Positions 1-42,189 of a DNA stretch of 64,000 bases are shown piece after piece. The DNA is taken from IMG/VR virus record IMGVR_UViG_3300033067_001807, positions 1 through 64,000 of that record; one strand, given 5' to 3'. The notes under the pieces are model-generated. The model saw only the letters and a program-made list of their open reading frames with translations. It had not been told where the DNA came from and made no database searches. Origin of the DNA: a virus (taxonomy: Duplodnaviria > Caudoviricetes). The position numbers were made by a program, and so were the translations under genes. Each line of letters starts with the position of its first letter. The stretch's first letter is position 1.

Positions 1-1290
1 TTCGTTTACTGTAATACTTTTAAGAAGTTTTTGTCCAATTTTAGACAATGAAACTCCTTCTTCTGAAATTGTAAAGTAATGTGCATTGTTTTTAGTCCAT
101 CTTTTAGAATTATTAGAAAGACCTGCAACAAAATTTTCAAATGCCTCTTTGGTAATTTTACCATTTTTAATAAACTCTAATACTTTATTTCTAACAGCAG
201 CTGTTTTACCTACTGTTTTTGCTGGATTATTTTCAGTATATTGTCTTTTAAGAATAACATTGCGACCTTCAGTAATCACAGATTCTAATACATCTTCTAA
301 TTCCAAGTCATAGTTTGCAAGAACTTTATCTAATTTATCTGCTGGAACTTTGTCGCCATACGAAACAGAAAGATCTTGAATTGCAGATTTTGCGTCAATC
401 ACCCAATCACCTGCGTTATTTGCAATCTTAACTATTTCTTTGGTATTATAGAATTTTTTAGATTCGATAACGATAGATTCTGCGACATTAGTTTCCCACC
501 AATCTTGAAGTTTTTGGAATTCTTTACTTCCCATATTTGAAAGCATATAATCCATTATGTCATTATCGTAATCTTCAGCTTCATCTTTATAACCACCTGG
601 AGTATCGATGTAATCTTTACCCATGATTTTTTTGATTGCTGATTCTGGCATTCCATCAATTTCCTCTAAGAAATCTTCGAAATTTTCAGTATTTTTAAAT
701 TTGGCTGCTTCAGTAACTACTGATTCATTTGCAAATGCCTTTTTCATGTTTTTTGCAATTGTGTCAACTGTATCATTTTTCTTACCATATACTGGATTCG
801 AAGGTACTGCCATATTCATAACATTTCCGTTTTGATAGATATTATATGAACCTCCCTCAAATTCTTCTCCATCAACATCAAGGTCAAATGAATCCTCTTC
901 TAATGTTCTTTTATTAACAGTAACTTTACTACTGTCAATTTTTGACATTGCGTCTGCAAATTTTTGTGCAATTTTCAAAGTCTCTTCCTTTGTAAGACCC
1001 GCTGGTTTTCCATAAGCCTCATCAAGATTTTCATTAACAACCAATTGAACATCTTTATCTTTGCCTGCAACTGCGGCATCTAATTCTTTAACTAGGTCAT
1101 TTTTCTTTGAGGTTAATCCCTTTAATTCTGCAAGAATATTTGCCTTTTCATCTCCGGTTGCGGCAGCATATTCCTTTGCCATTGCCGCCATTTTATTTAC
1201 AACTTCAGTAAATTCAGTTTGAATTTTGTTAATCGATCTTTCGTTTAACACACTGTTCATTTCATTTACGTATTTTTCAAATGAGCTCAT
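1..1290 (-). CDS. Modular putative internal-head polyprotein; runs off the left edge (>=430 aa); not in ORF track
   Basis: Hand translation from ATG at 1290 gives 430 codons with no stop (MSSFEKYVNEMNSVLNERS...KSITVNE). N-terminal capsid-targeting-like tag; linkers ENLDE|A, ESVVTE|A, ESIVIE|S, ESVITE|G. Confidence 0.85.
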   Translation of the reverse strand, partial: MSSFEKYVNEMNSVLNERSINKIQTEFTEVVNKMAAMAKEYAAATGDEKANILAELKGLTSKKNDLVKELDAAVAGKDKDVQLVVNENLDEAYGKPAGLTKEETLKIAQKFADAMSKIDSSKVTVNKRTLEEDSFDLDVDGEEFEGGSYNIYQNGNVMNMAVPSNPVYGKKNDTVDTIAKNMKKAFANESVVTEAAKFKNTENFEDFLEEIDGMPESAIKKIMGKDYIDTPGGYKDEAEDYDNDIMDYMLSNMGSKEFQKLQDWWETNVAESIVIESKKFYNTKEIVKIANNAGDWVIDAKSAIQDLSVSYGDKVPADKLDKVLANYDLELEDVLESVITEGRNVILKRQYTENNPAKTVGKTAAVRNKVLEFIKNGKITKEAFENFVAGLSNNSKRWTKNNAHYFTISEEGVSLSKIGQKLLKSITVNE

Positions 1291-1326: not shown

Positions 1327-3204
1327 TTAAAATTTATTTATGAATTGTTCAAATGTCATAATTTCAGCTGAAACGGTTTCGGCAACTACTCCCATTTTAT
1401 CTTCTAACTTTGACTTTAGTTCATTGTACATTGGGTGAATTGCCTTAGGTGTCATTGATTGAAATTCTTTCTCATTTCCATTTAACATTGCATTTCTAAC
1501 TTTAGTTGCCGAAATTTCATCATCAGTTCTTGGAATTTCAAATAACGCAAAATCAGCTCTTACATTTAATTGGTCTCTATATGAGTCATTGTTAACCATG
1601 TATCCATAAGCTTTCATTCTATCGCTTCCAGTTCCCCATAACACAGGCTCATATTTTGGTCTTACCTCATTAAACATTATATCTATGGCCGCGCTTGGCA
1701 CAACAAATATTTCCTTTAGAAAAGGATATTGTTTTTTAACCTTATTAAACATTTCGATTTGAGTGTTTTCCTCATAAGGTCTACTAAATTCATCACCTTT
1801 TTTAACTGTCTTTGATTTTACCAAAAATACAACTACAGGATATCCATTCGCTTTGTACATTGTTTCAAGTACCTTTGCATGTCCAAGTGTAAATGGTTGA
1901 AATCTACCAACAAACATATTTACGGGTTCTTTACCCTGTTCCATGTGTTTAACAGTTAAAGCTTCGTTTAAGTTCACAGATGCTTTAATCTTATTATGTA
2001 ACATAAAGTTGTTATAGTCATATACCGCATTTTCATCGGTATTTTCTACAAATATTTTTTGATTTATTTTATCAATAAAATCGTTCATTCTTGCAAGAGT
2101 GTCTTCGTCAATTAAATCAGTTGCCTTAGTTCTCTTTTTTCTAAATGAACTTAAAATCATTTTCAATAATTCTGACAATATCTCATTGTCAACATATTTT
2201 AGCGTCTTTTCATTTTTGATGTATTTTGAATTTAATCTAAAAGATTGTGCTGTAGAAAATTCTGCACTTTCAAAATTAACGCCAATATATTTTGATGAAT
2301 TTTTGTCAATATATCCATTAAATAGGACAGACATTATTTCTAAGTATCTATAATCAGCATGCTCCTCTTCGATTGTTACATCATCGAGGTCATACATTGT
2401 AACATATTCTAGAAAGTCTGTAACTGCAATCTGATATGTGTGACTTGAAGCTCGCATATCTCTTTTTTCTGCACCTGCTCTTAAAAAATCTTCAAGCTTA
2501 AAGGACTTCATTGTTTTTCCATCAATGAAATTAATAACTAATCCATCTATTTCACTGTCTAAATTCGAATTAAGTGCAGTGGCAGTTATGCTTGGATTAA
2601 AAATTTTAAATATTGCCTTGGTAAAACTTTCTTTGTCTGCTGTTTCAGTTAAATAGTCAAATGAATCAGCAAATTCTCTGTCTCCCATTGCCAATAATTC
2701 TAATAGGTTTTCTCTCTGTTCTTGTGAAAGATAACCATCGAATATTACTGGCGGTGTTTGCACATCCATGATTTTCGCCCATTTATTTAAAATAAGTGGA
2801 TCGTTTATAGTTTTTCTAACTTTGCCACCTTCGCTTAATTGGTGGATATGTGTTAAAATTAAATTATTTGTAGGTGTTATTTCATAGACAATATCAGATG
2901 CCTTTGTTTCAGGCAAGTATTCAAATCCAAACATCCAATCTACTGGAAATTGTGCCTTAGTATCTTTTGATAAACTTTGTAAATGATTAATGGCCATTTC
3001 ATATAACGAAATTATGGTTCTATCTATCATATTCAACCTTTCAGCCGTTGCAGATTTATAAAATTCAAATCCATTTATATTTCTTCTAAAAAGAAACGTG
3101 GGTGCTGCAACCTTTTCGGTTACTAGTACCCTATGTTTTAACATTTCAATAAAATTTTCTCTATTGGTCTCGTTAAAATATTCTCTTATTTTTTGTAATG
3201 CCAT
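1327..3204 (-). CDS. Degenerate ATP-dependent ligase-like domain fused to HIGH-family (cytidylyltransferase/NMNAT-like) nucleotidyltransferase
   Basis: C-terminal MFVGRFQPFTLGH, GTGSDR and ISATKVR motifs. N-terminal TEKVAA (motif I-like), FGFEY and IDGLVINF...FKL. Confidence 0.7.
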   Translation of the reverse strand: MALQKIREYFNETNRENFIEMLKHRVLVTEKVAAPTFLFRRNINGFEFYKSATAERLNMIDRTIISLYEMAINHLQSLSKDTKAQFPVDWMFGFEYLPETKASDIVYEITPTNNLILTHIHQLSEGGKVRKTINDPLILNKWAKIMDVQTPPVIFDGYLSQEQRENLLELLAMGDREFADSFDYLTETADKESFTKAIFKIFNPSITATALNSNLDSEIDGLVINFIDGKTMKSFKLEDFLRAGAEKRDMRASSHTYQIAVTDFLEYVTMYDLDDVTIEEEHADYRYLEIMSVLFNGYIDKNSSKYIGVNFESAEFSTAQSFRLNSKYIKNEKTLKYVDNEILSELLKMILSSFRKKRTKATDLIDEDTLARMNDFIDKINQKIFVENTDENAVYDYNNFMLHNKIKASVNLNEALTVKHMEQGKEPVNMFVGRFQPFTLGHAKVLETMYKANGYPVVVFLVKSKTVKKGDEFSRPYEENTQIEMFNKVKKQYPFLKEIFVVPSAAIDIMFNEVRPKYEPVLWGTGSDRMKAYGYMVNNDSYRDQLNVRADFALFEIPRTDDEISATKVRNAMLNGNEKEFQSMTPKAIHPMYNELKSKLEDKMGVVAETVSAEIMTFEQFINKF

Positions 3205-3229
3205 TTTTATATTTATAGAATTATTTTAT

Positions 3230-4516
3230 TTATCTGCCGTATTTAATAATACCTAGTAGTGAATTTATTGCGGCGAATGTTCCTGTAAGCTTCATTGTCT
3301 TTCCTTTATAAACAAAAACAATACCTTCAGTTGGAATAATTGAGTCTATTCCTCCGATTCTATCAAGTCTTTCAAGTTCTGAAATTACTTTATCGACTTG
3401 TGGGGCTTCTCCTCCTTTTTTAATTTTATCTGCCTCAGATCTAATTTGTGCATGCAATCTTTGCATCTCGACTGCAGGGTTTGCTGCCACAAAGTTACTT
3501 GCATTTTTTAAGATAATACTACCCAACTCCAGAAATAAATCTTCAAATGGTCTAATATTTTCTTTATATTTCTTTTTAACGTCTTCTTTGTCAAATTTCT
3601 TAATTAATTCAGCCTGATCTTTTCCAAGTTCTTTATCTAAACTTCTTAAGTTAAGTGTTTTCTTGTCATCGTATGCCCATCTAAGTAGTAGACCCTCTTT
3701 AAAGTTTTGTGATAACGCTGGGAAATTTTTGTCAATTTGCTCTCTCCACCACATTTCATGATATTTAGAAACTTCATCAGCATCTGTTAATTTATAACGA
3801 TTTTTAAGTTCCTCTACCTTTGCAATAAATTTACCTTTGTTTTCACTGAAATTTAAGTCCTTACCTATTTGAATAATTTGAGGAGGGATTACTGTAAATA
3901 CCTTTCCTATATGTGATTTAACGTCCTCTAGGGCCTTTGCAATTGAGCGTGCATATTTATCTTCAGATCCAATAATATTACCCTCACCGTCAGTTATTTT
4001 AATCCCATGGAACTGTATAACATCTCTATCATAATAGATTACATTTGGATTTTTAGAATAAATAAGCTCCATGTTCATGAAGTTTTTACCATTGTTAAAT
4101 GCCTCTAAATCATTTGGTGATAATTTAATAAGTAAGGTAGCTAAATCATCTGCTGCAAATTGAAATGTGTCCTGTACTAATTTACTAGGATGTCCTTCAA
4201 ATTTTTGTTTAAACGCAGAAAGATCCATTGGATTTTTTAGTTCGGTTTTATTTCTTGCAAATTTAACTTGACCATCCTGTACTGTAGCAAAAACGTTTTG
4301 ACCATCGGTTTTTTCAGTAGGTTCCTTTTCAAATGTTAAATTACCGGATAGCCCTGCCTCAATGATTTTTTTAAAATCCCCAAAAGTTAAATCATGTTCA
4401 TCAAATGGATGTGACATATGCCCTGCTGCTCCGCCTTCAAGTAAAAGTTGCTCATGTAATTTAACTTCGTATTTTTCAGTTAAAAACTGATTAAAATTAA
4501 GGATTCTTGTTTTCAT
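3230..4516 (-). CDS. ATP-dependent ligase/nucleotidyltransferase-fold protein (RNA ligase-like) with capsid-targeting-like N-terminus
   Basis: TEKTDG (KxDG motif I), NMELI, EGIVF...KLTG (motifs IV/V-like). Start moved to ATG 4516 (MKTRILNFNQFLTE) because the upstream extension overlaps a hairpin/promoter. Confidence 0.6.
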   Translation of the reverse strand: MKTRILNFNQFLTEKYEVKLHEQLLLEGGAAGHMSHPFDEHDLTFGDFKKIIEAGLSGNLTFEKEPTEKTDGQNVFATVQDGQVKFARNKTELKNPMDLSAFKQKFEGHPSKLVQDTFQFAADDLATLLIKLSPNDLEAFNNGKNFMNMELIYSKNPNVIYYDRDVIQFHGIKITDGEGNIIGSEDKYARSIAKALEDVKSHIGKVFTVIPPQIIQIGKDLNFSENKGKFIAKVEELKNRYKLTDADEVSKYHEMWWREQIDKNFPALSQNFKEGLLLRWAYDDKKTLNLRSLDKELGKDQAELIKKFDKEDVKKKYKENIRPFEDLFLELGSIILKNASNFVAANPAVEMQRLHAQIRSEADKIKKGGEAPQVDKVISELERLDRIGGIDSIIPTEGIVFVYKGKTMKLTGTFAAINSLLGIIKYGR

Positions 4517-4533
4517 ATTGTAAATATAATAAA

Positions 4534-4563
4534 AATACCTGACATAATAAAACATCAGGTATT
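4534..4563 (-). terminator. Hairpin AATACCTGA...TCAGGTATT plus T-run, followed by TATATTTAC promoter-like box
   Basis: 9-bp inverted repeat at 4534-4542 and 4555-4563 between two genes. Confidence 0.6.
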
Positions 4564-4579
4564 ATTTATTTAAATTATT

Positions 4580-6298
4580 TTAAGATTCTTGAGAGATTTC
4601 TTCGTTCGTATCTGATTCTCCTAAAGAACCTGTTAACATTCCAACGCATGCACCATAATCTCCATCACATTTTTTAAGAATTCCATCTGCAACTTCTCCA
4701 GCTTTAGCTTCGTCAAAGTCAGTACCGAACGCTTTTTTCAAAACACTCATTGCATATTCTTTAAATTCATCGTCAGATTTGATTTCTGCTTCATTGACTA
4801 GGGATTCAAATAAAGTTAATTCATAGCGATATGCATATGATTTATCAGCTGTACTTTTTGATAGCTTCTTAGTAGCAAATCCCATAGATTTTAATTTCTT
4901 TTCGATTTCATCTCTACGTTGTTTATCTTCACATCTAAAAATTAAACGATCACTATTTCCATGAGAACCTTTTTCAAGTTCAACACTATTTGCGCCAATT
5001 CCGTATGGGTTATTTTCATACTTATCTCTAATTTCTTCAAATGACATAGCTTCATTAACTAAAGATTCTTTGATTCCTAATTCTTGTAATTTTCTAACAG
5101 GTACACCTTTCTTTTCTTCATCATCCGGATTAGGATATGCTAATAAATTAGCAGCAATTAATCTTTTGTAGATTTCTGCTTTAACTAATCCAAAATCAAT
5201 TGAGTCACTTGAATTTTCCCAAGTATCTGCGACATGTTCTGGATCGATCCAACCATATCCTGACTTGATATTTTTAACCATGTCGTTAAAATCGGCGTCA
5301 AATCGCTTAACAGCGGCCTCTGAGATTACTGACTCATTTTTTTTTACTGAATCCTTTAACGCATCTAATTCTTTTTTCAATTCCTTAGGTAGACCTCTTT
5401 CGATTCCCCAATTAAAACTTGCGTTAACTAACATATATAATGGTAAGTTCTCATTTCTTTTGCCATAAGGCGAAGATTCAATCCATGATAAATAATGGTC
5501 AGCTAATTCCTTTGACATTTTAATACCTTCTGCCTCTGTTGAATCACCGTCAACGATTCCTTTAAGTAATTTTTTAGCCATACCATGTTTTCCTTCAGTA
5601 ATCACAGTTTCGAACATTTTAGCTAATTTACTTTTTTTAAGAGTCATTGTAATAAAATCTACAATTTCATCAAATTCAAACATTTCATCATATAAATCTT
5701 TGAAAATAATCTCGGCCGATTTTAGCAAGGCATCCATTGCCTTAGTATTATGAAGTCCGTCCATTCTATCAAATGCGCTTCTGCTAATTGCCTCATCTAA
5801 ATGTTCTTCAACTTTATAAGTTTCTCCTTCAAATTCAAATTCAGATTCTCCTGCCTCTTTTGCTTTTCTAACTGCATCTCCAAAAGCATTACCTTCTTCA
5901 ATGGATTCCTTAACGCCAGTATCTTTAATTGTTACTTTATAAGTTTTACCATTAAATTCGAATTCATCTTTACCTTCTGCTTTGGCCTTTCCAGCAGCAT
6001 ATACAAATGCATTACCTTCTTCTAATTTTTTAGGTTCTCCTAATTTATTGATTTCGTCTTCAATATCTTCTGCTTCATCTTCTGAAACATTACCGAACAT
6101 TTTACTAATTAGTGCCTGTTTTGTATCTTCTTCCAATTCAGTTAGAGAGGTTACTCCCATTTCATCAAGGATTTCTCCAATTTTACCAACAGTTTCCTGT
6201 CTTTTTGCGTTGTTTTCTTCTCGTAGTTTCATTGCAGTTTCCTGGTTTTTAACCTCAGTAAAACTTTTAAATGAAGAGATTTTGTTAACTTCTGCCAT
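4580..6298 (-). CDS. Modular putative internal-head polyprotein (572 aa)
   Basis: Seven protease-site-like linkers at E94, E135, E169, E235, E327, E416 and E503; duplicated EEGNAF module; late-promoter-like motif upstream. Confidence 0.75.
   Translation of the reverse strand: MAEVNKISSFKSFTEVKNQETAMKLREENNAKRQETVGKIGEILDEMGVTSLTELEEDTKQALISKMFGNVSEDEAEDIEDEINKLGEPKKLEEGNAFVYAAGKAKAEGKDEFEFNGKTYKVTIKDTGVKESIEEGNAFGDAVRKAKEAGESEFEFEGETYKVEEHLDEAISRSAFDRMDGLHNTKAMDALLKSAEIIFKDLYDEMFEFDEIVDFITMTLKKSKLAKMFETVITEGKHGMAKKLLKGIVDGDSTEAEGIKMSKELADHYLSWIESSPYGKRNENLPLYMLVNASFNWGIERGLPKELKKELDALKDSVKKNESVISEAAVKRFDADFNDMVKNIKSGYGWIDPEHVADTWENSSDSIDFGLVKAEIYKRLIAANLLAYPNPDDEEKKGVPVRKLQELGIKESLVNEAMSFEEIRDKYENNPYGIGANSVELEKGSHGNSDRLIFRCEDKQRRDEIEKKLKSMGFATKKLSKSTADKSYAYRYELTLFESLVNEAEIKSDDEFKEYAMSVLKKAFGTDFDEAKAGEVADGILKKCDGDYGACVGMLTGSLGESDTNEEISQES
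5810..6025 (-). repeat. Two tandem intragenic modules EEGNAF..A..KAK..G..EFEF.G.TYKV
   Basis: Residues about 92-123 and 133-163 of ORF 4580-6298. Confidence 0.85.
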
Positions 6299-6330: not shown

Positions 6331-7839
6331 TTATATATCTCCATCAAAATTGACTTTCTTAATAGTGTAATCAAACTTCTCCTGTTTATATATAGCCTGT
6401 CTTGCCTTGCCATGTTTATATAGGTAATTATCCCATTCAATTGTTCTAATATCGTCTACAAAATCTACGATTAGTACTTTATCCTTTGATTCATGTTGGC
6501 GTAATCCTCGACCAATTGATTGTCTAATAATTACCTCTGACTTGAAGGATTCTGTAAAAAATATATTGTGAATTTTTTTAATTGAGATTCCTGTTGAAAA
6601 AGTTCCATAACTTGCAACGATTACGATTTCCTCACCGGCTTCCATCTTCTTTTTATATTCTTCCCTAATATCGGAAGCGGTTCCTCCATCTACATAGAAA
6701 ACACGTTTATTTGTTTCCTGTCTTAGTTTTTCGTATAATCTCTGACCATGTTCAATTCGATGGAAAAGTACAAGTGAGTTTCTTGGAACTCTACCTATAA
6801 CACTTGATATAAAATCTAATCGTGCCGCATTATTAATCACAAAATTCTGTTCAAGTGAAAAAACATCCTTATTTTCATATTTATTTTGTGCTAATTCCAT
6901 TAGGGCAGTTTTCTGTTTATCGGTTGCATAGTCCATTTCAATAACTTTAACCGCACATTTTGCGATGTGACCTTCGTCCTGTAAAAAGCTTGCCTTAACC
7001 TCTGTGATTACAGGGCCAGTTTGACTCATCAGGGTTAATTTATCTAATGTACCATCCTTTGGAATTGTACCCGAAAGTCCAAATCTATATTTTGCATTTA
7101 TACATTTTTGTAAAATTGTCTTGATACTTGCTGATTTTGCCTTATGTGTTTCATCAACGATTACGGCATCAAATTCTGCAAAATAGTCTGCATCTTTTTT
7201 AATAAGAGATTGATATGTACCTATGATAATATTTTTATTGCCTTTAATTTTTTGACCTGCAAAAATCTGTTGAATTCTTAAGTCAATTCTATTTCTAAAG
7301 TTGTATTCATGAAAATCCTCATGTGCCTGTACAACCAGTGAAACATTAGGTACTATAAATAAAATCTTTTGGGCTTTATTTTTTTCTAACATATATGCAA
7401 TTGTTAGAAAACTGATTAGGGTCTTACCCGCTGATGTTGCAAGCTCTGCAAGGCATTTTCTAAATTTTAGAATATTGTATGCTGCCTCAACCTGATAGTC
7501 CCTAGGAGTTATCTTTGAACCCTCAAATAGGCCATATGCCCATGTTTCAAATCCTTCTGCTGAAATATCGGGGTCGATTAATCTTTTAATTCCATTTATT
7601 TTTAATTCAAAACGATAATCCTTACATACGCTCATTACATATCGCCATAGTCCTGCAGGAATCCATTTATCATCTTTAATATAAGATACATAACCATCCC
7701 ACACACCTCTTTTGACAAGTGGATTAAATCTCCACGAGTCAATTCGTTTAGTTAAAGAAATTCTAATTTGCTCTAACTCAAGCTCAGTTGATTCATCAAT
7801 TCTTAAAAATTGATTGTCTTCTGTTAATGTTAAAATCAA
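6331..7839 (-). CDS. uvsW: UvsW-like superfamily 2 DNA helicase
   Basis: PRDYQ, ATSAGKT, IVDETH, GLSGT and QSIGRGLR motifs; next to uvsY; TTG start (start uncertain). Confidence 0.9.
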   Translation of the reverse strand: MILTLTEDNQFLRIDESTELELEQIRISLTKRIDSWRFNPLVKRGVWDGYVSYIKDDKWIPAGLWRYVMSVCKDYRFELKINGIKRLIDPDISAEGFETWAYGLFEGSKITPRDYQVEAAYNILKFRKCLAELATSAGKTLISFLTIAYMLEKNKAQKILFIVPNVSLVVQAHEDFHEYNFRNRIDLRIQQIFAGQKIKGNKNIIIGTYQSLIKKDADYFAEFDAVIVDETHKAKSASIKTILQKCINAKYRFGLSGTIPKDGTLDKLTLMSQTGPVITEVKASFLQDEGHIAKCAVKVIEMDYATDKQKTALMELAQNKYENKDVFSLEQNFVINNAARLDFISSVIGRVPRNSLVLFHRIEHGQRLYEKLRQETNKRVFYVDGGTASDIREEYKKKMEAGEEIVIVASYGTFSTGISIKKIHNIFFTESFKSEVIIRQSIGRGLRQHESKDKVLIVDFVDDIRTIEWDNYLYKHGKARQAIYKQEKFDYTIKKVNFDGDI

Positions 7840-12622: not shown

Positions 12623-14685
12623 TATATGATATTTACGTTTCCATAGTATAATAGCGATTCTGTACCACCATTTTTAATATTAATATAGAACTTGTCAGCA
12701 TATTGATTTGTATCTGATTGGTCAAATCTATTTGCAACGTCCTTTGTAACTTTAAAGAATATTTCGCCATTACCCATGTCAACACCTGGAAATGAAGGGT
12801 CATGTGAAATTCTTTGTTCTATTGTTCCACTTTTAATAATTAATACAAGGTCTTCAGAATTTACAAGACTAATTGCATTTAATACACCATCACCTGGTTT
12901 TGCAACTTTAAACTTAATAAAATTATCAGAAACCTTTGATAGTACAATAGTACCAACTCCTTCAACTTCATATTTAATATCGGCAGTCGCAGACACATCT
13001 ACTCCATCTACTGACATTTTTGTATTCGATGCAACAATTCCATAAGTGTCTAATGCAACTGGAACATATTTAGTTTCTCCTACCGTTGGTCTAATAGAAT
13101 TTACAAATTGATTTAATTCTCTATTAACCGATGTATTGGGTAATGTGTTATATACAATTGTTGGTGAAAAACTTGAATTTAAGTTTAACTTTAATAATTT
13201 TTTACCATATTTTTTAGGTTGACTATAGATTAATGAAGCAACCTTTAAAATCTGAGTATTATCTGTTTCATTGTAAATACGCATATTTACAGTTATTAAA
13301 AAGTTACTTGTTATTGAAGAATTCATAATAACTGGTCTAAACACTATTTCCTCATCAAACTGTGAAGTTTGCGTAAACGTATTTGTAAAAGTATTGACAT
13401 AATTAAGACCAATCTGTTCACTAACTTGTACTTCATAAAATATTGTTAAATCATCTCCAGAAGTTTGCATTTTTCCATTAATGTAACTTTCAAATTGAGA
13501 TTGGGAACCATCTTTAGTTCCATATATTTGAAAATAATCTCCATCGTCAGCATGCTTAATATTTACAGCTAAATCTACATATTCATCTTCCCGTGAAAGA
13601 ACAATTGATGTTCCTTCTGCTAAATTAATATAGTCATATCCATTTATAGTGATTACCTGACTTATTAATTTAAAATCAATCTCATAGTTTACTGAATTTA
13701 TAACAGCATCATTTGTATTTGCTTGGCCAAAGAAACTTTCTTGAAATTCAAGATTTTTAGTTGGTTCATACATATACACTAATGAAGGTACTTTAATTTC
13801 AATATATTTTGAATATGAAGTTTCTCCTAGTATAAATGGGTTTGGATTTTGAATTTCAAAGTTAGATGAATTTAAATAAACCAAAGAGTTAAAATAATTA
13901 TAAACACCTGATTTTCTTTTAACCTTTGTTTGAAATAAAAATCCATCATATCCTCTACCACTAAATGAATATCCTGTTCTTAGGTGTAATCGAATTGTGT
14001 CATACCAAACTGCATTTACCTCTTGGGTAGGCACAACTATTAAGTCATTGGACTTTGTTCCATTCCATTCAGTGGAATCTAAATAATTTAAAGAATTATT
14101 TAATAATGCCAGTGTGTTATCTATTTCAGTTGGAACTGCATAGTATCTTCCACTCTCACCAGGTGCTGTTTTTATGTCATTTCCTGTTTGAGCATGTGGT
14201 GTTGAAAATAATGAGCTTGCTCTATTTGAAACTTCGATCTGCCCTCCTATAAATTCCTTTCCAGCTAAATTTGTGTATTCATATCTGTAATTTCCATTAG
14301 TTGTAGGAGAATACACATATATTTGCCCGGTTATATATCCATTTCCTCCGGGAATATTAAAGCCATTAATATTATCGATACTTAGATCTGTTAAATCAAA
14401 CTTATATGTTTTACCATTTCTAAGTAATAATTGTCTACTTGCAAATCCATTTATAACAACGTATCCATTAGATATTGCAACCGTGAATTCAACAACATCA
14501 TCTCCAAGTTCATTAATTAAGAATCTGGAAGCACTATTATCTCCTTCAACTACATTTAAATATTTAAGTTGACTTCCATTGTTATCATTTTCAATCATTG
14601 CTTCATTTGCATTTGATTGGTCATGATAGATGAATTCCAATAATACATCTTCATCTATTCTTAAAAATCTTGATGATTTTGCCAT
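12622..14685 (-). CDS. Putative virion structural protein
   Basis: 687 aa, beta-rich, within the structural operon. Confidence 0.6.
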   Translation of the reverse strand: MAKSSRFLRIDEDVLLEFIYHDQSNANEAMIENDNNGSQLKYLNVVEGDNSASRFLINELGDDVVEFTVAISNGYVVINGFASRQLLLRNGKTYKFDLTDLSIDNINGFNIPGGNGYITGQIYVYSPTTNGNYRYEYTNLAGKEFIGGQIEVSNRASSLFSTPHAQTGNDIKTAPGESGRYYAVPTEIDNTLALLNNSLNYLDSTEWNGTKSNDLIVVPTQEVNAVWYDTIRLHLRTGYSFSGRGYDGFLFQTKVKRKSGVYNYFNSLVYLNSSNFEIQNPNPFILGETSYSKYIEIKVPSLVYMYEPTKNLEFQESFFGQANTNDAVINSVNYEIDFKLISQVITINGYDYINLAEGTSIVLSREDEYVDLAVNIKHADDGDYFQIYGTKDGSQSQFESYINGKMQTSGDDLTIFYEVQVSEQIGLNYVNTFTNTFTQTSQFDEEIVFRPVIMNSSITSNFLITVNMRIYNETDNTQILKVASLIYSQPKKYGKKLLKLNLNSSFSPTIVYNTLPNTSVNRELNQFVNSIRPTVGETKYVPVALDTYGIVASNTKMSVDGVDVSATADIKYEVEGVGTIVLSKVSDNFIKFKVAKPGDGVLNAISLVNSEDLVLIIKSGTIEQRISHDPSFPGVDMGNGEIFFKVTKDVANRFDQSDTNQYADKFYINIKNGGTESLLYYGNVNII

Positions 14686-14699
14686 TTCTTTATAATTTT

Positions 14700-15533
14700 T
14701 TAAAATCTAAGCCATTTTGGTGACCACATTAAACCGACGTTAATTGAAGGACCGAATCCTACAACTTGACCAGGTGTTAAATTAACTCCGTATCCTAATC
14801 CGATTCCAACAGACCAACCTGCTTTCTTTTCATTTTTTTGATTTAGTTTATCATTAACTAAATTAATATTTTCAATATTCGTAAATTCAATTCCAGGATA
14901 AGGCGATGTTATCTTTAAAGAATTAACTCCGTTTTCATTTAAAATTGCGGCTTTTAATTCAATACCTTGTTCAAAATCAAATCGACTGGAAGTAACTGAA
15001 AGACCATTTGTTTCTTTATTTCTTAAAACATCTAGGGTTCCATTAAATCTTCTCCAGTTATATTTATCCCAATTTTTATCATCATTAAATTTAATCGTTG
15101 ACGTAGAATCAGTTAATGTAACTACAGTACCCTTTGAATTAATAATTGAATCTTTAACTCTAATCTCAGTTCTTAATAGCGAATTTACATTTCTAATATC
15201 CTTTGCTAGATTAAGTGCTCTCTGATAATCTGCAATTGCTTTTTTATTATTTTCATTTAATGAATTAATGTCAAATTCATATGCTAATTTCTCAGCCACT
15301 AATTCACCATTTTTATTTTTTTCAAGTTCGATAGTATCTAAACTTGCTCTATAATTATTAAGTTCTCTATTAGCAACTATTTGGGTTTGTTTAATTTCTC
15401 TTTTTAAAGAAGCATTTGAATTACATTGTTGTAAAAACAATAAGATAAACACAATAAGACTGATGTAAAGAATATCAGTCTTAGTTAGTTTTAAATTTTT
15501 AATCCAATTTATTATTTTAGTGATGTATATCAT
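14700..15533 (-). CDS. Membrane-anchored coiled-coil protein with C-terminal amphipathic beta-hairpin (spanin-like candidate)
   Basis: N-terminal TM ILYISLIVFILLFL; coiled coil; GWSVGIGLGYGV...SINVGLMW; terminal Phe. Confidence 0.5.
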   Translation of the reverse strand: MIYITKIINWIKNLKLTKTDILYISLIVFILLFLQQCNSNASLKREIKQTQIVANRELNNYRASLDTIELEKNKNGELVAEKLAYEFDINSLNENNKKAIADYQRALNLAKDIRNVNSLLRTEIRVKDSIINSKGTVVTLTDSTSTIKFNDDKNWDKYNWRRFNGTLDVLRNKETNGLSVTSSRFDFEQGIELKAAILNENGVNSLKITSPYPGIEFTNIENINLVNDKLNQKNEKKAGWSVGIGLGYGVNLTPGQVVGFGPSINVGLMWSPKWLRF

Positions 15534-18029: not shown

Positions 18030-18067
18030 TCTTTATATCTTAATTTATTTTATATATATTCATTTTA

Positions 18068-20248: not shown

Positions 20249-23200
20249 TTAAGCCTGTATTTTAACATGTATTTTGAAGTTGTAAGAATATCCAAGTATC
20301 TTATTATATATTAGTCTAAAACTAAGTCCATCATTTTGATAACTTAAAATGTTATAGTTACTTAATTTTGTATAACTATTAAGAGTTAAATCTTCAACAT
20401 TATCTACCGAAACAAACCCAGTCGTTAAATCTTTACCTTGAATTCCATAGATGTCAATTGTGTCCAATATAAACCTAGGTGTTATATTGGTATTTGAATA
20501 TATGCTTAAATCATCTTGTATTGATTCTTTATCTCCAAATGAGAATTCACTTTTAATATATCTTTTAAATCTTGAAGTAATTCCGTCTTCTAATAATTCA
20601 TTAAGAATAGCACTTGGTAAATAAAAATCAGCAATCAATTGTGATTCATTTTCATACCAGTGTATTGAAGATTTATTAGATTGATTAAATCTAATTCTAT
20701 CCAACTCTTCTAAAGAATTTTCTTGAATATCGCTGAATCTTGTGATATCATAAGTGTCTTTAACCTTCATTATGGTCGAAACCATGAATGTTTTCTTTTC
20801 AACTGGACTTAAAGTACCATGTACTTCCTCCGAATTTCCACCGGCTAAAGCCTTAGAAAAGTATTTAGGTGAATATTTTGACATAAATAGGTTTAAATCC
20901 TTTTTATCAATTGCAATCTCTCCAATTGCAGGATATAATGGCAATTTATCAGAAGTTTGAGAAAGCTTTAAGATATTCTTTGAATCCTCGTCATTTACCT
21001 TATGATAAAAATAGTTTTTAATAATTCCATAGCTATTTGTATTTGTCTTAAATGATTCAAACGCAATTCCAAGCCCATTGAATTTATTATATACTAATCT
21101 TTCATAATCTGATATCTCATTATTTTCTGATAAAACCTTATATTGTGTATATAAATCAGTAAATGTTATAATGCTATTGAATGATGGATTATAATCTCCA
21201 TTCATTCTACGTAAAACAGTGATATAACCACCATCTGTTCTATTTGTAATTATTTTTCCAATTTCGCCAGAAACAAGTTGATATGCTTTAGGTCTGTCAG
21301 GATCTGCATCTGATTGTAACATCGATGGCTTAATTATATCAGTCCCTGATTCAATAGATAAAATATATTGATTGTTTAATATGGTACCATCTTCCTGTAC
21401 CGTAATATAATCAACATTATTTAATTTATTAAATGAGTTAGCAAAATTATATGCATTGATTTGATTTAACACCGAAGCAAATTGATTTTTACCACCTTGA
21501 TAATATTTAAATTCAGCATTTAATGGTACTAATCCAAACTGTGAAGGATCTAATCTAAGACTATTTGCAGAAATCGTACCAGTCGTTGTGTTAAATAAAT
21601 ATGGCCAACCACTAACAACTATACTCTCATCATTTATCACTCTAATAACCTTAACTGCCCATGTCTCTCCAATTGTATTAAAATAAATCCAACTAAAATT
21701 TCCTATTTCATCGGGAGTTACATACGTTCTAAATTTAGCGCTACCATCCTGTATAGCAAATTGAGAAGCATTTAATATTGCCTCTTCATTTGGATTAATT
21801 TGGCTAAATGAACTACCTGCAAAATCGATTTGAAATTTAATCAAAGTATCTATAACAATATTATTCTCCTTTACGTCGTTAAGTGTATATAATAAATTTC
21901 TATTTAAGTATTTTTCATCATTTTCAATAAGTTCTAACTCAATTAAAATACACATAAATTTAAATTTGTCATTCTTGATCGATGTAATTGTTGCAGCATC
22001 CTTATTTGAACCCTGTTTATATTTTAAAACAACTCCGAATTTAATGTCATTAGCCTCATTTGTTGGAATAAATTCAGTAGGATTTTGAGATATAGTTTCT
22101 TTTCTTTTTTGATAAACATATCTTAATCCTCTAAATACTGTCGATGCATTTTTTTCATTATTGCCAGCATCAAATTTAGTCCATAATGGTTTAAGGGTAT
22201 TATCATACCATATATTATCGATTGAATCATAATATCCATTCCAATTAAAGTATTGGTTAAAATAATCGAAAGAAGTGTCTTGTAATTTTGCAATTGTTAA
22301 TTCTTCATCTGCAAAGTTTACATAATTATTAAAATCCTTTCTTCCTCCTAGTAGAGTATTAGGTAGGTCATGTATATGAAAATGCTCCATATTCATTAAG
22401 TCAACGTTTCTCTTTGAATCTATTTCAATATTTGGTGATAGATTATCTTCACCAAATGATTCGTTTACGTTCAATGTATATGGTAAATTTCTTGCGTTTG
22501 TTGCGTTTTTTAATTCAAACTTACAAATATGAGGTGCTATTCTGCTTTTTATAGCTGTTTCCTTTAACTTATTTTCACCTAATCTATCATACTCTGATTT
22601 TAAATTAACTAATCCTTGATTTTCTTCAACCTTTTCGTTTTCTAAAATAGGATTCAATCCACTATAAAATGTAAATGCTTCATTATCTTCAAAGTCATAC
22701 GATAAATCTCCAAGTTCTGAGTTTTTAGTTGAATAAAAATCAAAGTCAAAATCTTTAAAATCATATGCAGCAAATCTTCCATGTGATATTTCGAAAATCT
22801 TATACGTTTCAAATACCATATCATTTGAAAGTTTTATTGGATTTTGTAATATTACTCTATATAAATCTTCGTTAAAAGGGTCTTTATCAAATTCTATAAT
22901 TTTAGAATATGATTCAGAGTCTTTTTCTTTAATCCACTCTGCACCAATTTCTATTGTTTTAATTTCAGAAGATTTTACTAAAAAGCCTTGTCCACCAGTA
23001 GAACCTCCAACCATTGTCCACATATTCCAATCTGAAAATATTGTGTTAGTTGTAGAAGGAACCAAAGAATTTACTAGCCCAATATTGCTTTCTTCTCCGT
23101 TCGATACTGTAATAAAGTTAACAGTGTTTGGCTTATAAATACCAAATACAGACATATATCTTCTATTACCATCTTGTGTATCTTCTATTATTATTGTGTT

Positions 23201-24652
23201 ATCTTTAACGTATGTTTTGTATGGCAATGCCTCGTTCGTTTTAATTGCATTAGATATTGCAATCGTAATTTGTTGAATAGATCCTTGATTTGAGAATCTA
23301 TTTGAGCTTGCTCTACCTGGAAGCATTGTTTCATCTGCTACCAATGTAAAATCGCCTAGATTATATCCGGCAATCTCAATTTCCATACGGTCTCCTATAA
23401 AAAATCTATCATTGTGATTTGGAACATCATTAACAGATAATCTAATAAATCCACGTGGATTCGGCGTTAATTTTTCTGCATTAATAATTTTACCTGTCTT
23501 TGAAAAACCTTCAAAATCAGAGTAGTTAGCTCCATTTAATGCAATTGGTAATTTTCCAAAAGAATAATTTGAACCATTTTTTATATTATGGAAATTTCCA
23601 TGTTTATCTTTAACATATTGCAATGATGGTATACTTAAATCAGATGCTTTAGGCAACATGTCAATATGTGACAAGGATGTGCCTGTGATGTCATACAAAC
23701 TTGTATATGAGTCCATATTAATACTTACTATTCCGTTTTTATTAATAGTATCAACCTTAAAATAACCCTCATCAATATCGTCTACATATAATCCGAAATA
23801 TCTGTATATTTTATAGTTCTCTGCTGTAGTATCATCAAATAAAAATTCAAGGTTAATTGTATTGGCTAAAATAATTCCATTTCTTTCAAATCCTTGTGTT
23901 ATAATTTCATTACTAAAAATTTCAGGATAGTCAACTTGCGTATAATATTTATCAAACTGTTCTGCTTTACTCACAAATCCACCATTAACTGTATCTATTC
24001 CATTATAAAAAGAGGAAGCACCCTCCTTAAAATTAACGCTTATTGCAGAATTTGGAAATTGTTTATCGTTGACATGCGTTGCTAAATATTTTCCAAGGGG
24101 TGCATTTATTCCAATATCAAATGTTTTAATAATAGTTGCCTTGCTTAATAACTCAACAATTCTTTGGTTTTGTCCAACTGTATCTTCATCATATTGTGAA
24201 ACATAGTCAACATCATCTACACGATATACTACAAATTTAGAAGGCAATTTCTTTTCAACCCATAATGGTGCAAATATTTTATACTGTTCATCATATAATT
24301 TTGTGGTATTATGAGAAGCTCCATACTGATATTGGTCTTCATATTGAATTGAATAATCGGAGTATAGAGTAACATCAGTATTTGTTCTTAATACTTGATA
24401 TTTTTCGCTATTAGGTAAATTTCTAAAGAATGTCGCAACATCAGACGAATATATGCCATCAGGTTTAATATCGAATTTTTGATACTCTACCTTTGCAAGT
24501 TCTTTGTTTGCTTTAAAAGCACTTAAAAATAAATTGGAATTTGAGTCAACAACTAATTTAAGATTACTTGTTAACTTAGGGTTGGTACGAAGCAATGCAA
24601 ATGATTTATTATCATTATCATTACGAACAACGCTTGTATTAATTATAGCCAT
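20249..24652 (-). CDS. Large putative baseplate/virion structural protein (1467 aa)
   Basis: Long ORF in the structural cluster; no enzyme motif recognised. Confidence 0.6.
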   Translation of the reverse strand: MAIINTSVVRNDNDNKSFALLRTNPKLTSNLKLVVDSNSNLFLSAFKANKELAKVEYQKFDIKPDGIYSSDVATFFRNLPNSEKYQVLRTNTDVTLYSDYSIQYEDQYQYGASHNTTKLYDEQYKIFAPLWVEKKLPSKFVVYRVDDVDYVSQYDEDTVGQNQRIVELLSKATIIKTFDIGINAPLGKYLATHVNDKQFPNSAISVNFKEGASSFYNGIDTVNGGFVSKAEQFDKYYTQVDYPEIFSNEIITQGFERNGIILANTINLEFLFDDTTAENYKIYRYFGLYVDDIDEGYFKVDTINKNGIVSINMDSYTSLYDITGTSLSHIDMLPKASDLSIPSLQYVKDKHGNFHNIKNGSNYSFGKLPIALNGANYSDFEGFSKTGKIINAEKLTPNPRGFIRLSVNDVPNHNDRFFIGDRMEIEIAGYNLGDFTLVADETMLPGRASSNRFSNQGSIQQITIAISNAIKTNEALPYKTYVKDNTIIIEDTQDGNRRYMSVFGIYKPNTVNFITVSNGEESNIGLVNSLVPSTTNTIFSDWNMWTMVGGSTGGQGFLVKSSEIKTIEIGAEWIKEKDSESYSKIIEFDKDPFNEDLYRVILQNPIKLSNDMVFETYKIFEISHGRFAAYDFKDFDFDFYSTKNSELGDLSYDFEDNEAFTFYSGLNPILENEKVEENQGLVNLKSEYDRLGENKLKETAIKSRIAPHICKFELKNATNARNLPYTLNVNESFGEDNLSPNIEIDSKRNVDLMNMEHFHIHDLPNTLLGGRKDFNNYVNFADEELTIAKLQDTSFDYFNQYFNWNGYYDSIDNIWYDNTLKPLWTKFDAGNNEKNASTVFRGLRYVYQKRKETISQNPTEFIPTNEANDIKFGVVLKYKQGSNKDAATITSIKNDKFKFMCILIELELIENDEKYLNRNLLYTLNDVKENNIVIDTLIKFQIDFAGSSFSQINPNEEAILNASQFAIQDGSAKFRTYVTPDEIGNFSWIYFNTIGETWAVKVIRVINDESIVVSGWPYLFNTTTGTISANSLRLDPSQFGLVPLNAEFKYYQGGKNQFASVLNQINAYNFANSFNKLNNVDYITVQEDGTILNNQYILSIESGTDIIKPSMLQSDADPDRPKAYQLVSGEIGKIITNRTDGGYITVLRRMNGDYNPSFNSIITFTDLYTQYKVLSENNEISDYERLVYNKFNGLGIAFESFKTNTNSYGIIKNYFYHKVNDEDSKNILKLSQTSDKLPLYPAIGEIAIDKKDLNLFMSKYSPKYFSKALAGGNSEEVHGTLSPVEKKTFMVSTIMKVKDTYDITRFSDIQENSLEELDRIRFNQSNKSSIHWYENESQLIADFYLPSAILNELLEDGITSRFKRYIKSEFSFGDKESIQDDLSIYSNTNITPRFILDTIDIYGIQGKDLTTGFVSVDNVEDLTLNSYTKLSNYNILSYQNDGLSFRLIYNKILGYSYNFKIHVKIQA

Positions 24653-24723: not shown

Positions 24724-27700
24724 TTAATACATATTAATTTCTGGATATGAATAATCGATTCTATCTTCTGCAAGGTATAATCTTCTACCTCCACCGCCTC
24801 CACCTGTTTGGAAGTTTGTATTATAATTAGACAACATTGAACTTGTAATATTGTTTATGTTTTTTCCTTGAGGTGAATATTTAGCGTAAACTTCAATGTC
24901 GAATTTAAATTCTTTTTTAGCAAAATCTAATATATCTAATCCTATTTTTTTAGAATAGGTTAAATTTGTTAGTGTATTATCTATAACTCCGCCTACTCTA
25001 CCTGTTCCGGCTGCTCCTTCTCCAAAATAATCTGTCATTCTGTATTGAAATACAAGATCGATAGTAATCGCATTTGCACTTCCACCAACTACAATTTTTT
25101 TACCATTTTTATTTGGTGCGTCAACGACTAATGAATCAACGTTTAATGGCGACAAATATAGGAAAGATCCACATGAACGTCCACCTAATAGATACTGATC
25201 TTCGGGATTAAATCCATTTTTAATAGTAGATCGTAACCCTCTGCTTCCCTGTTTATTAAGCGTTTTAATAATTCTAAATGGTGTTTGTTTTTTGCCATGT
25301 GCATCATCTGCTCTTCTTGGCGCCGTTTTTGGCATACCAACCAATCCATTTCCTACAATTTCTAAAATTGCGCTTGATGGTGAAGCCACTGAAGAATATC
25401 CGGATAACAATGGGTGATCCGTATGCATGTATATTCCATTTGAATAATCTGAATATGTTACCGCGCCTCCTAGCCCGGTTTTATTTGGAACACTTCCACT
25501 ATATGTACCTGCCCATATAAAATTTCCTGGATTGTTTTCGGTTGATAATGGAGTTGCAGTAGCACCTGTAAAATTCTTAGAACCATCAGAGTTCACTGTA
25601 ATTCCATTTATAACAAAATTTAATCCATATTCATATTTATCATATCCATTTACACTAGCAATATCGATGTCTCCATCAAATCCTCCATTACTATTTCTTT
25701 CATCTATTATATATAAATTATCATCAGCTGCAAGATTTTTAAATCTAGAGTATATGAATTGTCCTCGCAATTGAGTTGATTGCTCAGGTCCACTATTGAA
25801 ATAGTCGGTATTTAATCCTGTAACATTATCTATATTTTGATATACTACCGGAACTAAATCATATCTACCCTCATTTTTATAAAAATCATCATTAATATAT
25901 TCAGGTGAAGGTGTTCCCGTTCCTAATCCAAATCGAGTGTCAACCGTTGAAACATGTGCAGGTGTTCTTGTATCTCCAATGATTCTTGCAATTAATTCAA
26001 GGTCAGTTGCTTTAGTATTTGAAAGTTCAACTTTAAAGTTTTTAGTAACAATATATCCTTTACCTCCAGTGCTTGGAATTTCATTTACATAATAACCTGC
26101 AAATAATTGTACAGTACTGTTATTTGTGACTGGTGTAACGTTACCATCTTCATCAATAATTTTAACCATTAATTCACCAACAGTACCTTCAATAACAGCT
26201 CTTAATCTTAGAACTTCGTTTTGAAGACTTAATAATTTATCATATACTGATAAAGGATTATTTAGGTCAGATAAAAATCCAGATGCAATTGAACTTGCGT
26301 TGTGTGCATATATAGATTCTCCTGCAGTAAACGTTTCTGCAACGTGAGAATATACTCCGGCGGTTTCAAGGTCTTGTTGAATTTGAACGCGAACCGCATC
26401 TAATTCATTAGCCTTAACAACACTATCGATAACGTCTGTATTTACTTCACCTTGTGGAAATTCTATTCTTTGAATTTCTGACCATTCAGATTCAATTGGA
26501 TTTGCAGGAAATCCTGCTTCAGAAATAGATTTAACCATTACTTCAACAATTTCCCCTGGGTTAATTGAAATGTCTAGTGAGTTAAAGTTAATTGCGTTTG
26601 CATCCTCTTCACTCTCTAAAACCCATGCATATTTTCCATCTTCTCCTAACTGTCTTTTTCTAACAGGTCCCATAACTTCAACCCAGTTTGAAAACGCTGC
26701 GGTTTTTTCAGTTTGGTTAACACTGTCAGTAAATTTTATTTGGTCAACTTCGGATGTTTTACCGGATGTTGACACATATCTATATCTTATTTTAAATTGT
26801 ACAACTTCTTGTGAAACTTGATTTCCAATTGTCTTAGGTTCAGGTACTGACCAAAATCCACGTACTCTAAATTTAGGAGCAACTGTTTGTAAGTCGGCAC
26901 TTTCGGCAGAAGATTTAATATCTGTAATAATTGAAGAGAATAGTTTTGAACTTGATTCTCTCTGATTAATTAAAGAATTTAACTCATTATTTTGAGTATC
27001 TTTTTCAGCAGAAGATTTAAATTTTTTGGTGTTGATTAGGGATTTCTTTTGCTTAATTGCATCATCAAGTTTTTTAATCTCCTGCTCTACCGATGTTTTA
27101 TCAGCCTTTAATTGCTTAATTTTATCAGTAGTTGTATTATTTGTTAAATGTTTATTAATTTGAACAACTTTAAAATTAGCAGTATCAATTAAAGGTACAT
27201 TTGGTTTAATACCTACTGCTGCAGGCGGAATATAATCAACCTTTAATGATTTAATAAATTGCCCGAAATCTGAAACCTCATCTCTATAGTACTCTGCAAG
27301 AGTCATTTTGTTTCCTAATGAATTTACAATTTCTAATTCATTAGAATAAAATGCAACTCCAGGCGAATAGTTTTCAGCTGGAATCTTTGAGTTTGGATCT
27401 ATTGGTTTTATAAAAATAACCTGTCTTTCATTAAAACCAATTTTAATTTCTACGTCTAAATTAGTGTCAACATCTTTATAAACACCAAGTTGATTAGCAC
27501 CAATTTTTATTGCTTCAGAACCTTCCATTAATAAAAGTTCAAGTTGAGAAGTTGAATTATCAATCGAAACAATTTGATACCTTGTTCTATAATTTCCAGA
27601 ATTAACAATTAATGAATCTCCAACCTTTAAAGTCTCAGTGTCTTTAAGGTCTTTTGTAGAGTCGTTGTATGCTAATTTATTGACAGTATATAATTTAACT

Positions 27701-38359: not shown

Positions 38360-39169
38360 TTATAGTAGGGAATCTAGTTTTGCTTGTAACTTTTTTAAGG
38401 TCTTTTGATAATCTACGATTGATTTTCTTTTCCATTCAATATTCATTTGTTTCCAAGAAGCAATTCTTTTAGCGATTCCATTATCACGCTCTGAATTATA
38501 GAATGACTCGTCATTGTTGTAGTTTTTAGCAGCATCTCTACTTACAATTTCTTTCCATGTTGGCCATTCATGCCAAGACTCTCTAGGATTATCTTTAATA
38601 GATTGAATGATTTCAGCATCAGTTAATTTAGAATTTGTTTCAGCATCTTCAGTTGCTCTTTTAATTCTAACTTCGTAGCTCTGAATTTCTTGGTTAAGTT
38701 TTTCAAGCTTAGACATTTTCTTAATCTTCTCAGAATATTCTTTTGAAATTTCACTGGCACCGGTTTTAGGGATATTTGTCTTAACAATATATCTATAGTG
38801 AAGTCTTTGGATGTTGTGACCACCTGCATAAATTGCTTCAGTTACAAAACTATATGTAGTTCCTTCTCTTTGGATTTGAGAAGATATTTCAATATTTCCT
38901 TTAGCACTTTTACTAACATTAAGAGAAAGTAACAAATCAGTGGGTTGTGTATATGCTTCAACTGCTTTAACCATATCAAAGATTAAATTTAATCTTGCCA
39001 TTTCTCTGTCATATTTAGTAAACTCCTGTTTAAATGTTTCAGTAAACCATTTTTCGGTAGCTGCTAACATTTCTACAATAGTAGGTTCCATCGAATCCAA
39101 AATAACATTTACAATATTATTTTGTTTGGATTCATTAACGAATTGATTATATGTTTTAAATTTACTCAT
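38360..39169 (-). CDS. Hypothetical protein with capsid-targeting-like N-terminus
   Basis: MSKFKTYNQFVNE|S; C-terminal coiled coil. Confidence 0.65.
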   Translation of the reverse strand: MSKFKTYNQFVNESKQNNIVNVILDSMEPTIVEMLAATEKWFTETFKQEFTKYDREMARLNLIFDMVKAVEAYTQPTDLLLSLNVSKSAKGNIEISSQIQREGTTYSFVTEAIYAGGHNIQRLHYRYIVKTNIPKTGASEISKEYSEKIKKMSKLEKLNQEIQSYEVRIKRATEDAETNSKLTDAEIIQSIKDNPRESWHEWPTWKEIVSRDAAKNYNNDESFYNSERDNGIAKRIASWKQMNIEWKRKSIVDYQKTLKKLQAKLDSLL

Positions 39170-40453: not shown

Positions 40454-40501
40454 TTTTTTTTAGTTTAAGTGTTAATATTAATAGTTTATATATACGTTTT
40501 A

Positions 40502-42163: not shown

Positions 42164-42189
42164 AATACGTGTTTTAGAAATTATATATC

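Follow-up and report, generated by a model that had tools for sequence, protein, structure and literature searches.

The window analysed here comprises the first 64 kb (64,000 nucleotides, nt) of the 81,497-base IMG/VR record IMGVR_UViG_3300033067_001807 (Duplodnaviria; Caudoviricetes), whose CheckV completeness is 27%; base 1 of the window is base 1 of the record. An open-ended listing of open reading frames (ORFs) reveals a minus-strand frame at 1..1290 that starts with an ATG at 1290 and runs through 430 open codons without a stop down to base 1. The original prediction had described these uninterrupted codons at the window edge and had remarked that the ORF track missed them. Both statements are correct, and the frame was missed because default lists omit open-ended frames. 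Since the window begins at the first base of the contig, the gene is truncated, and the leftward extension that had been proposed is not possible within its own record; relatives (L002 and G001 to G003) supply the rest of the protein. With a probability of about 0.72, we read ORF 1..1290 as the front half of a capsid-targeted cargo polyprotein that is cut by a gp21-type prohead protease.

The encoded protein starts with a leader similar to the capsid targeting sequence (CTS) of phage T4, which is followed by five modules, M1 to M5 (Table 1). The junctions, in which a slash marks the putative cut, read SVLNE17/R, NENLDE91/A, ESVVTE194/A, ESIVIE276/S and ESVITE341/G, and SITVNE430 falls at the edge. 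The masses of M1-M5 range from 7 to 11 kDa; four modules are acidic and M5, which is the first module of a conserved C-terminal core, is basic. Full-length relatives contain 775-982 residues, and the window holds the leader through M5, roughly the first half. The homologue at L002:8001-10538 is 846 residues long and 91% identical, and the syntenic G001 copy contains 982 residues.

Table 1. Features of ORF 1..1290, modules of its full-length homologue at L002:8001-10538, and examples of the promoter-like motif. Nucleotide positions are those of the window; pI, isoelectric point.
Feature	Residues	Nucleotides	Strand	Description
Candidate cargo-polyprotein gene, 5' part		1..1290	-	430 codons; truncated by contig end
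N-terminal leader	1-17	1240..1290	-	MSSFEKYVNEMNSVLNE; MSSFEKYVNE/MNSVLNE/R; T4-CTS-like, two [VL]-N-E sites
M1	18-91	1018..1239	-	Helical hairpin, pI 4.9; ends in double linker VVNE/NLDE/A, nt 1018-1035
M2	92-194	709..1017	-	Alpha/beta domain; ends in linker ESVVTE/A, nt 709-726
M3	195-276	463..708	-	Acidic helical, net charge -13; ends NVAE/SIVIE/S, nt 463-480
M4	277-341	268..462	-	Poorly modelled; ends DVLE/SVITE/G, nt 268-285
M5	342-430	1..267	-	Basic, winged-helix-like, pI 10.1; ends SITVNE at edge, nt 1-18
L002 leader	1-17			CTS-like
L002 M1	18-91
L002 M2	92 to about 205
L002 M3	about 206-286
L002 M4	287-351
L002 M5	352-440
L002 M6	441-529
L002 M7	530-846			35-kDa core, outside window
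Promoter-like motif ATATATAA		1320..1327	-	37 nt upstream of ATG
ATATATAA, further example		6331-6338
ATATATAA, further example		18050-18057
ATATATAA, further example		42181-42188
ATATATAA, further example		47987-47994

The linker motif was counted in a strict form, E[ST][VLI][VI][TNSI]E[AGS], a looser form, [VLI][VI][TNSI]E[AGS], and a four-residue form, [VIL][NTSA]E[AGS]. Across the 85 ORFs of the contig, the strict form matches seven times, three times in ORF 1..1290, four times in the sister ORF 4580-6298 and nowhere else. The three matches in ORF 1..1290 compare with 0.0007 expected, and none of 20,000 composition-preserving shuffles reaches three. The looser form has a density of 7.0 per 1000 residues here versus 0.10 in the other ORFs of four related contigs (86,435 residues), a 67-fold difference. 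In the related contigs G001, G002 and G003, the strict motif is confined to homologues of the two polyprotein genes. The modules of these two genes are not homologous, and BLASTP aligns the linkers only (best E 0.1).

Eight IMG/VR loci encode homologues of the ORF 1..1290 protein, and metagenomes yielded more than 275 homologous proteins. When 1.84 billion representatives were searched with a profile, 899 clusters (50% identity) matched at E <= 0.001, including 208 at E <= 1e-30, with lengths ranging from 164 to 1131 residues. Relatives carry varying subsets of M1-M4 ahead of a nearly constant M5-M6-M7 core, and the ends of BLAST blocks among 120 relatives pile up at the junctions. Protein P0112, which has the N-terminus of the sister gene, features M1 after QESVVNE/AR and M3 after ESVVNE/AE; cassettes therefore move between the two genes. 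Linker 2 differs between the 91%-identical homologues, as ANESVVTE/AA in the window (709-735) is replaced by the longer, unrelated TNESFLDASDKNSEELDE/AK in L002 (L002:8560-8620). Both versions end in aliphatic-x-Glu/Ala, the L002 version as L-D-E/A.

An AlphaFold2 model of the 846-residue homologue, obtained with 62 aligned relatives as input, has a mean predicted local distance difference test score (pLDDT) of 71.7 and a predicted template modelling score of 0.31, a value to be expected if the modelled chain resembles beads on a string. The pLDDT drops below 50 at residues 12-16, 78-92, 188-205, 282-293, 309-373, 435-447 and 499-529, that is, at all seven junctions, and folded modules lie between them. 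M7 is basic and is modelled as an alpha/beta part with a four-helix bundle.

These results bear on most claims of the original prediction. Its linker residues E17, E91, E194, E276, E341 and E430 are all exact on re-reading, and the segment lengths of 65-103 residues were obtained again on measurement. The segments indeed differ from those of ORF 4580-6298, with which they have linkers alone in common, and the argument that two arrays with one grammar are not a product of chance is upheld by the gene restriction of the motif and by the shuffles. It had proposed asking whether ordinary enzymes share the motif, and whether segment boundaries match domain boundaries. Neither outcome refuted the prediction. 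No enzyme or structural protein contains the motif, either on this contig or on three related ones, and the boundaries coincide, as judged by AlphaFold pLDDT and by homology block ends among 120 relatives.

The junctions follow a short amino-acid rule. To read them, the conserved starting residues of five modules served as anchors, and the text ahead of these was taken from all relatives. This upstream text is diverse (ESVVTE, EELDE, LAITE, ITVNE, TLNE, or an N-terminal leader), and a Glu is found within seven residues ahead of the module in 95 of 96 unique contexts. In a logo of these 95 junctions aligned on that Glu, in which P1 is E by construction, P3 is V/L/I in 90%, P2 is N/T/S/A in 90% and P1' is A/G/S in 87%. 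A slightly stricter second count found L, I, V or M at P3 in 81 of 91 unique junctions. A second aliphatic-x-Glu site occurs 3-10 residues upstream, usually four, in 47 of the 91 junctions. The six-residue connector is best read as two tandem sites, as in DVLE/SVITE/G, which would account for the conserved Glu-Ser at P6-P5. Non-canonical linkers, such as EELDE/A and LAITE/A, retain just the P3/P1/P1' rule.

The head protease gp21 of T4 cuts after Glu in L/I-X-E (PMC9026906), and the junction rule, compared at the level of sequence, fits this specificity. In the T4 genome (NC_000866), the corresponding sites are GSFLTE/AE in gp23, MAKINELLRE/S in gp24, and FVTE/A and TITE/S in gp22. Internal proteins feature MKTYQEFIAE/A (IPII and IPIII) or TITE/AT (IPI).

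In a comparison of patterns, the leader MSSFEKYVNE/MNSVLNE/R resembles the T4 CTS, MKTYQEFIAE/A (NC_000866), and by this resemblance the protein would possess the hallmark of T4-type tagged proteins, an N-terminal leader ending in an L/I-x-E site. A CTS-like leader is present in 93 of 120 family members versus 5-14% of the ORFs in four contigs (5 to 10 ORFs per related contig). In G001-G003, the gene between portal and protease encodes a small core protein with a similar FEEF leader, which falls outside the regular expression used for counting.

M1, M2, M3, M5 and the M7 core also occur elsewhere immediately after a leader, with the same first residue as in the polyprotein; leader and linker are therefore interchangeable. 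M2 follows MNFNQFLNE/A, M3 follows MKKVKLFEQYVAE/A, M5 follows either MNFQDFLNE/K or MSTFEDYLNE/G, and M1 follows a leader ending in EFFLNE/AR. All 26 complete stand-alone M7 proteins, the length of which ranges from 300 to 370 residues, begin with a leader ending in [LIVP]-x-E at the same module start, an example being MKHIKLFEQFINESDSSLNE/AFASTKLA. Ahead of M7, the polyprotein reads KFIYESFQEFVKTKLNEGILNE/AF, and the stand-alone protein P0189 begins with MKNQFIYESFNAFVENELNE/AF. F509, E512 and E529 of this stretch belong to the 26 columns that hardly vary across the family alignment. Judged by these alignments, the stretch before M7 in the polyprotein is a putative fossil leader. The simplest account is that tagged single-module genes were fused in frame, the downstream leader becoming a linker.

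A candidate protease for these sites is encoded by relatives. G001, whose gene order matches that of the window gene by gene and which runs past its left edge, contains a Peptidase_S77 gene that scores above the Pfam cut-off and adjoins a portal gene. Such a gene is also present in LR756500, PAU and pT24, and LR756500 has a second, weak S77-like match. G002 and G003 each carry both a homologue of ORF 1..1290 and a T4-type capsid gene, and their head genes are ordered as in T4, namely portal, small core protein, protease-scaffold fusion and major capsid protein. The protease of the lineage is 27% identical to T4 gp21 (E 6e-12) and keeps the catalytic His/Ser motifs GELDHP and ISSRA; its FVNE/G aligns with IVNE/G of T4. 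The same grammar is found in head proteins, as the capsid protein of the lineage has the N-terminus MANLINE/SE...SPIIE/SA and the scaffold part features the sites RVNE/S, FVNE/G, HIAE/S, YLAE/S and MVNE/A. The four-residue motif peaks at 11-12 per 1000 residues in the protease-scaffold fusion and reaches 7-8 in the polyproteins, against contig means of 1.3-2.9. The gp21-type protease, the grammar common to capsid and scaffold, and the equivalence of leader and linker lend support to the polyprotein already proposed in the original prediction.

At loci L039 and L041 (G002 40177-42108 and G003 1688-3601), the protease forms one fusion protein with a scaffold of about 480 residues, which contains repeated [HY][IL]AE/[SK] sites and a duplicated acidic block. 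ORF 61357-62289 of the window, annotated by PHROG as 'minor coat protein' and featuring IVIE/S before its domain, was considered as a further processed head protein and dropped, because Pfam assigns it to DUF6445.

The polyprotein may be compared with three known systems. T4 IPI, IPII, IPIII and Alt likewise begin with a 10-19-residue leader of the M-K-T-[YF]-x-E-F type, which in T4 ends in aliphatic-x-Glu/Ala and here in VLNE/R. In both cases, the genes are dispersed away from the head module and encode small payloads that are unrelated to one another; relatives of the source phage have a protease of the gp21 (Peptidase_S77) type (PMC9026906). In contrast, T4 genes encode one payload and require one cut, whereas up to about seven or eight payloads are strung in one frame here, with internal and often doubled sites between them. 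Packaging is proven for the T4 proteins and predicted for the polyprotein. Neither Pfam, PHROG nor NCBIfam revealed homology to IPI, IPII, IPIII or Alt, and no PDB sequence match was found; the polyprotein would thus work like T4 internal proteins by analogy and not be homologous to them.

Giant phages load many proteins into the head, and multi-site processing occurs in phiKZ, 201phi2-1 and SPN3US (PMC10052503, PMC5694885, PMC9026906). These phages also have a gp21-related, Glu-specific prohead protease and several redundant sites per substrate. However, their sites (S/A-x-E, A-x-E) are located within long N-terminal propeptides, which are broken down and removed so that a single mature product remains. 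The sites of the polyprotein instead separate folded, independently shuffled modules with stand-alone tagged counterparts (M1, M2, M3, M5 and M7), and P3 is V/L/I in 90% of junctions, as in T4, and not A/S. Polyvalent proteins combine unrelated domains in one chain and undergo domain shuffling; they are predicted to accompany the DNA and to be liberated proteolytically (Iyer et al. 2017, PMC5512222). In a similar way, the polyprotein contains at least seven modules, related neither to one another nor to the modules of the sister, with disordered linkers between them. Polyvalent proteins are, however, defined by MuF, zincin-like MPTase, ART, PBECR and other domains and by embedded peptidases, none of which was detected in the polyprotein, and here the head protease would bring about release by cutting, in trans, at a short linear motif. 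A literature search found no paper on modules strung together by head-protease sites.

The promoter-like motif ATATATAA occurs in 27 copies on the coding strand, 20 of which are intergenic or lie no more than 60 nt upstream of a start, in a contig that is about 7.5% non-coding. Most copies are found 11-57 nt ahead of genes for tail fibres, baseplate and other large proteins of the virion block, and one lies 40 nt before the sister ORF 4580-6298. A second motif, TTTATATTTACA.., follows a hairpin and precedes other genes, for instance 38360-39169 and 53173-53451. A scan for sigma-70 promoters revealed no excess of sites over shuffled sequence.

Several observations weigh against a cargo polyprotein cut in the prohead. 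The 81.5-kb record, at 27% completeness, contains no gp21 or gp23 gene, and both were deduced from syntenic relatives. Some junctions feature K, R, M or N at P1' (for instance E17/R and VNE/K), outside the A/G/S preference. No homologue was found by tblastn in cultured phages among 50,697 phage records. The gene lies among helicase, primase, ligase-like and nucleotide-metabolism genes and not in the head module. ATATATAA also precedes some non-structural genes, such as the primase gene, and therefore marks a shared promoter class, late timing not being established. M5, M6 and M7 are collinear in most relatives, and modules that are always cut need no fixed order. Lastly, misalignment of shuffled modules could partly cause the low pLDDT at the junctions, a problem of which the block-end analysis is independent.

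Part of this evidence would suit a multidomain protein that is never cut and functions as one working chain, the conserved peptide serving as a flexible connector or a partner-docking motif. The collinear core agrees with such a protein, the linkers are disordered in the model as ordinary linkers are, and cleavage is predicted from the junctions. We regard this as improbable, since ordinary linkers do not show an invariant Glu, an aliphatic P3 and a small P1' over 91 junctions between unrelated flanking modules, and do not alternate with an N-terminal leader ahead of an identical module start. Moreover, the capsid protein at its N-terminus and the scaffold follow the same rule.

Slightly less probable still is a polyprotein that is cut outside the capsid by a cytoplasmic protease, such as a paralogue of the head protease, the phage ClpCP or a host Glu-specific enzyme, with a leader that has another role. 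The replication-type gene neighbourhood, the second S77-like match in LR756500 and the presence of ClpP and ClpC genes on the contig are consistent with it. ClpP is, however, a processive protease and not a site-specific one. In addition, the leader is closely similar to the T4 CTS, the small core protein of G001-G003 bears its FEEF leader, and T4 gp21 is active only in the prohead (PMC5694885).

The contig genes for ClpP (Pfam, 201 bits) and a ClpC-type ATPase map to 72447-73133 and 74306-76276 (L010:10948-11634 and 12807-14777) and are separated by a thymidylate synthase gene; they constitute an additional proteolytic machine, distinct from the head protease. This ClpP was considered as the maturation protease and rejected, because it is a canonical ClpP by a ClpC-type ATPase and relatives have a gp21-type enzyme in the head module.

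At the DNA level, linker codons vary synonymously across 16 linkers in four contigs, and 5 of 21 nt distinguish the two ESLVNEA copies of the sister gene; it is therefore the peptide that is constrained. One pair of linkers, ESVITEG and ETVITEG of the two polyprotein genes, shares 16 identical nt (266-281 and 5592-5607), and codon-shuffled versions of the sister gene had a 16-mer in common with ORF 1..1290 in only 4 of 500 cases. Although this identity and the exchange of cassettes exactly at linkers might suggest that the linkers are primarily recombination joints, with microhomology for cassette exchange and a functionless peptide, such an origin is very unlikely, given the synonymous variation and the retention of the P3/P1/P1' rule alone in EELDE/A and LAITE/A; microhomology may aid recombination and shuffling, and leaves the amino-acid rule unexplained.

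Two minus-strand enzyme genes separate the polyprotein genes, and their products also have leader-like N-termini. ORF 1327-3204 encodes an NMNAT-like fusion protein, in which NLNE/A is found just ahead of a cytidylyltransferase-like domain (Pfam PF01467 from residue 430). The C-terminus of this protein, which ends in AEIMTFEQFINKF before the stop codon, is leader-like (window 1327-1360, 36 nt before the ATG at 1290); it resembles what is left of a small tagged gene after in-frame fusion, or else a fusion still under way. In the ligase-like ORF 3230-4555, the leader-like N-terminus reads MKTRILNFNQFLTE..LLLE/GGAAGH. The block of four genes, composed of both polyprotein genes and the two enzymes between them (1327-4555), may be cargo as a whole. 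A DUF3008 protein encoded downstream of the polyprotein gene (L002:11099-11902; G001 22576-23241) contains an internal leader-like MLKTFEQFINEMNES, and may be another fusion of a tagged module.

Searches for the function of the modules returned little. Neither megablast nor tblastn against GenBank phages matched the ORF 1..1290 protein, and Pfam, PHROG and NCBIfam contain no family for the polyprotein (Pfam gave none at E <= 0.01 on full-length homologues). A PDB profile search returned a spurious designed protein alone, the ESM Atlas yielded nothing usable for the modules, and Foldseek against PDB and BFVD found no match at E <= 0.001 with either the 846-residue or the M7-only model. VIA-align revealed generic helical hairpins and bundles, and a similarity of M5 to MarR-type winged helices; the match of M5 to 7el2 HpaR (Z 8.2, root-mean-square deviation 2.2, 63 aligned) is weak and lies inside the noise band for small domains. 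Fold searches revealed no peptidase in the polyprotein, which is weak evidence of absence.

The source phage is an uncultured myovirus of about 300 kb with a T4-type head and, probably, a Bacteroidota host. The large structural protein encoded at 24724-28407 has its nearest relative in the 462-kb metagenomic phage LR756500 (37% identity), and remoter matches occur in jumbo phages of Tenacibaculum, Flavobacterium, Chryseobacterium and Prevotella and in Sphingomonas phage PAU. Huge phages of Bacteroidota featuring a fused 'prohead core scaffolding and protease' gene form a broad group (PMC9723584), to which the source phage probably belongs.

The following sequence of events would account for a cargo polyprotein in this phage. 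The gene would be expressed from a promoter type that also precedes virion genes, and the T4-CTS-like leader, together with the second, fossil leader before the last domain, would bring the product into the scaffolding core of the prohead. There, the gp21-type protease would cut after Glu at each [V/L/I]-x-E/[A/G/S] junction, mostly at tandem double sites, releasing M1-M5 and, further downstream as seen in relatives, M6 and the 35-kDa M7 core. The products would remain in the head and enter the host along with the DNA. Such genes would have originated when leader-tagged single-module genes fused in frame and a downstream leader turned into a linker. Cleavage, packaging, injection and the roles of the modules are what we infer; the motif and its confinement to these genes, its place in disordered stretches between modules, the shuffling of modules at it, its agreement with the sites of head proteins in the lineage, the protease gene of relatives and the equivalence of leader and linker are what we observed.

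On balance, we lean towards a broader view, in which tailed phages with T4-type heads generally build cargo by fusing leader-tagged single-module genes, the leaders becoming cleavable linkers. One targeting event would load reshuffled small effectors in a fixed ratio, presumably for anti-defence or takeover, and these would be cut in the head and injected; the strategy would be widespread in aquatic huge phages, as this family alone comprises 899 clusters. If so, the polyprotein would represent a protein-level operon for virion cargo. If the cuts occur, a single gene would deliver seven or more separate proteins for injection, and cargo in T4-type and huge phages would have to be counted differently; in aquatic metagenomes, multi-module genes now labelled 'hypothetical' would, by the hundreds, prove to be libraries of small early-acting effectors whose mature ends can be precisely predicted. 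The leader/linker rule ending in [VLI]-x-E/[AGS] could be used to mine injected anti-defence proteins, and the layout of the polyprotein would offer a natural design for packaging multiple payloads in T4-based delivery vectors. The conversion of leader to linker, as suggested by the stand-alone M7 leader that recurs as an internal element of the polyprotein, would provide a concrete and testable origin for such genes.

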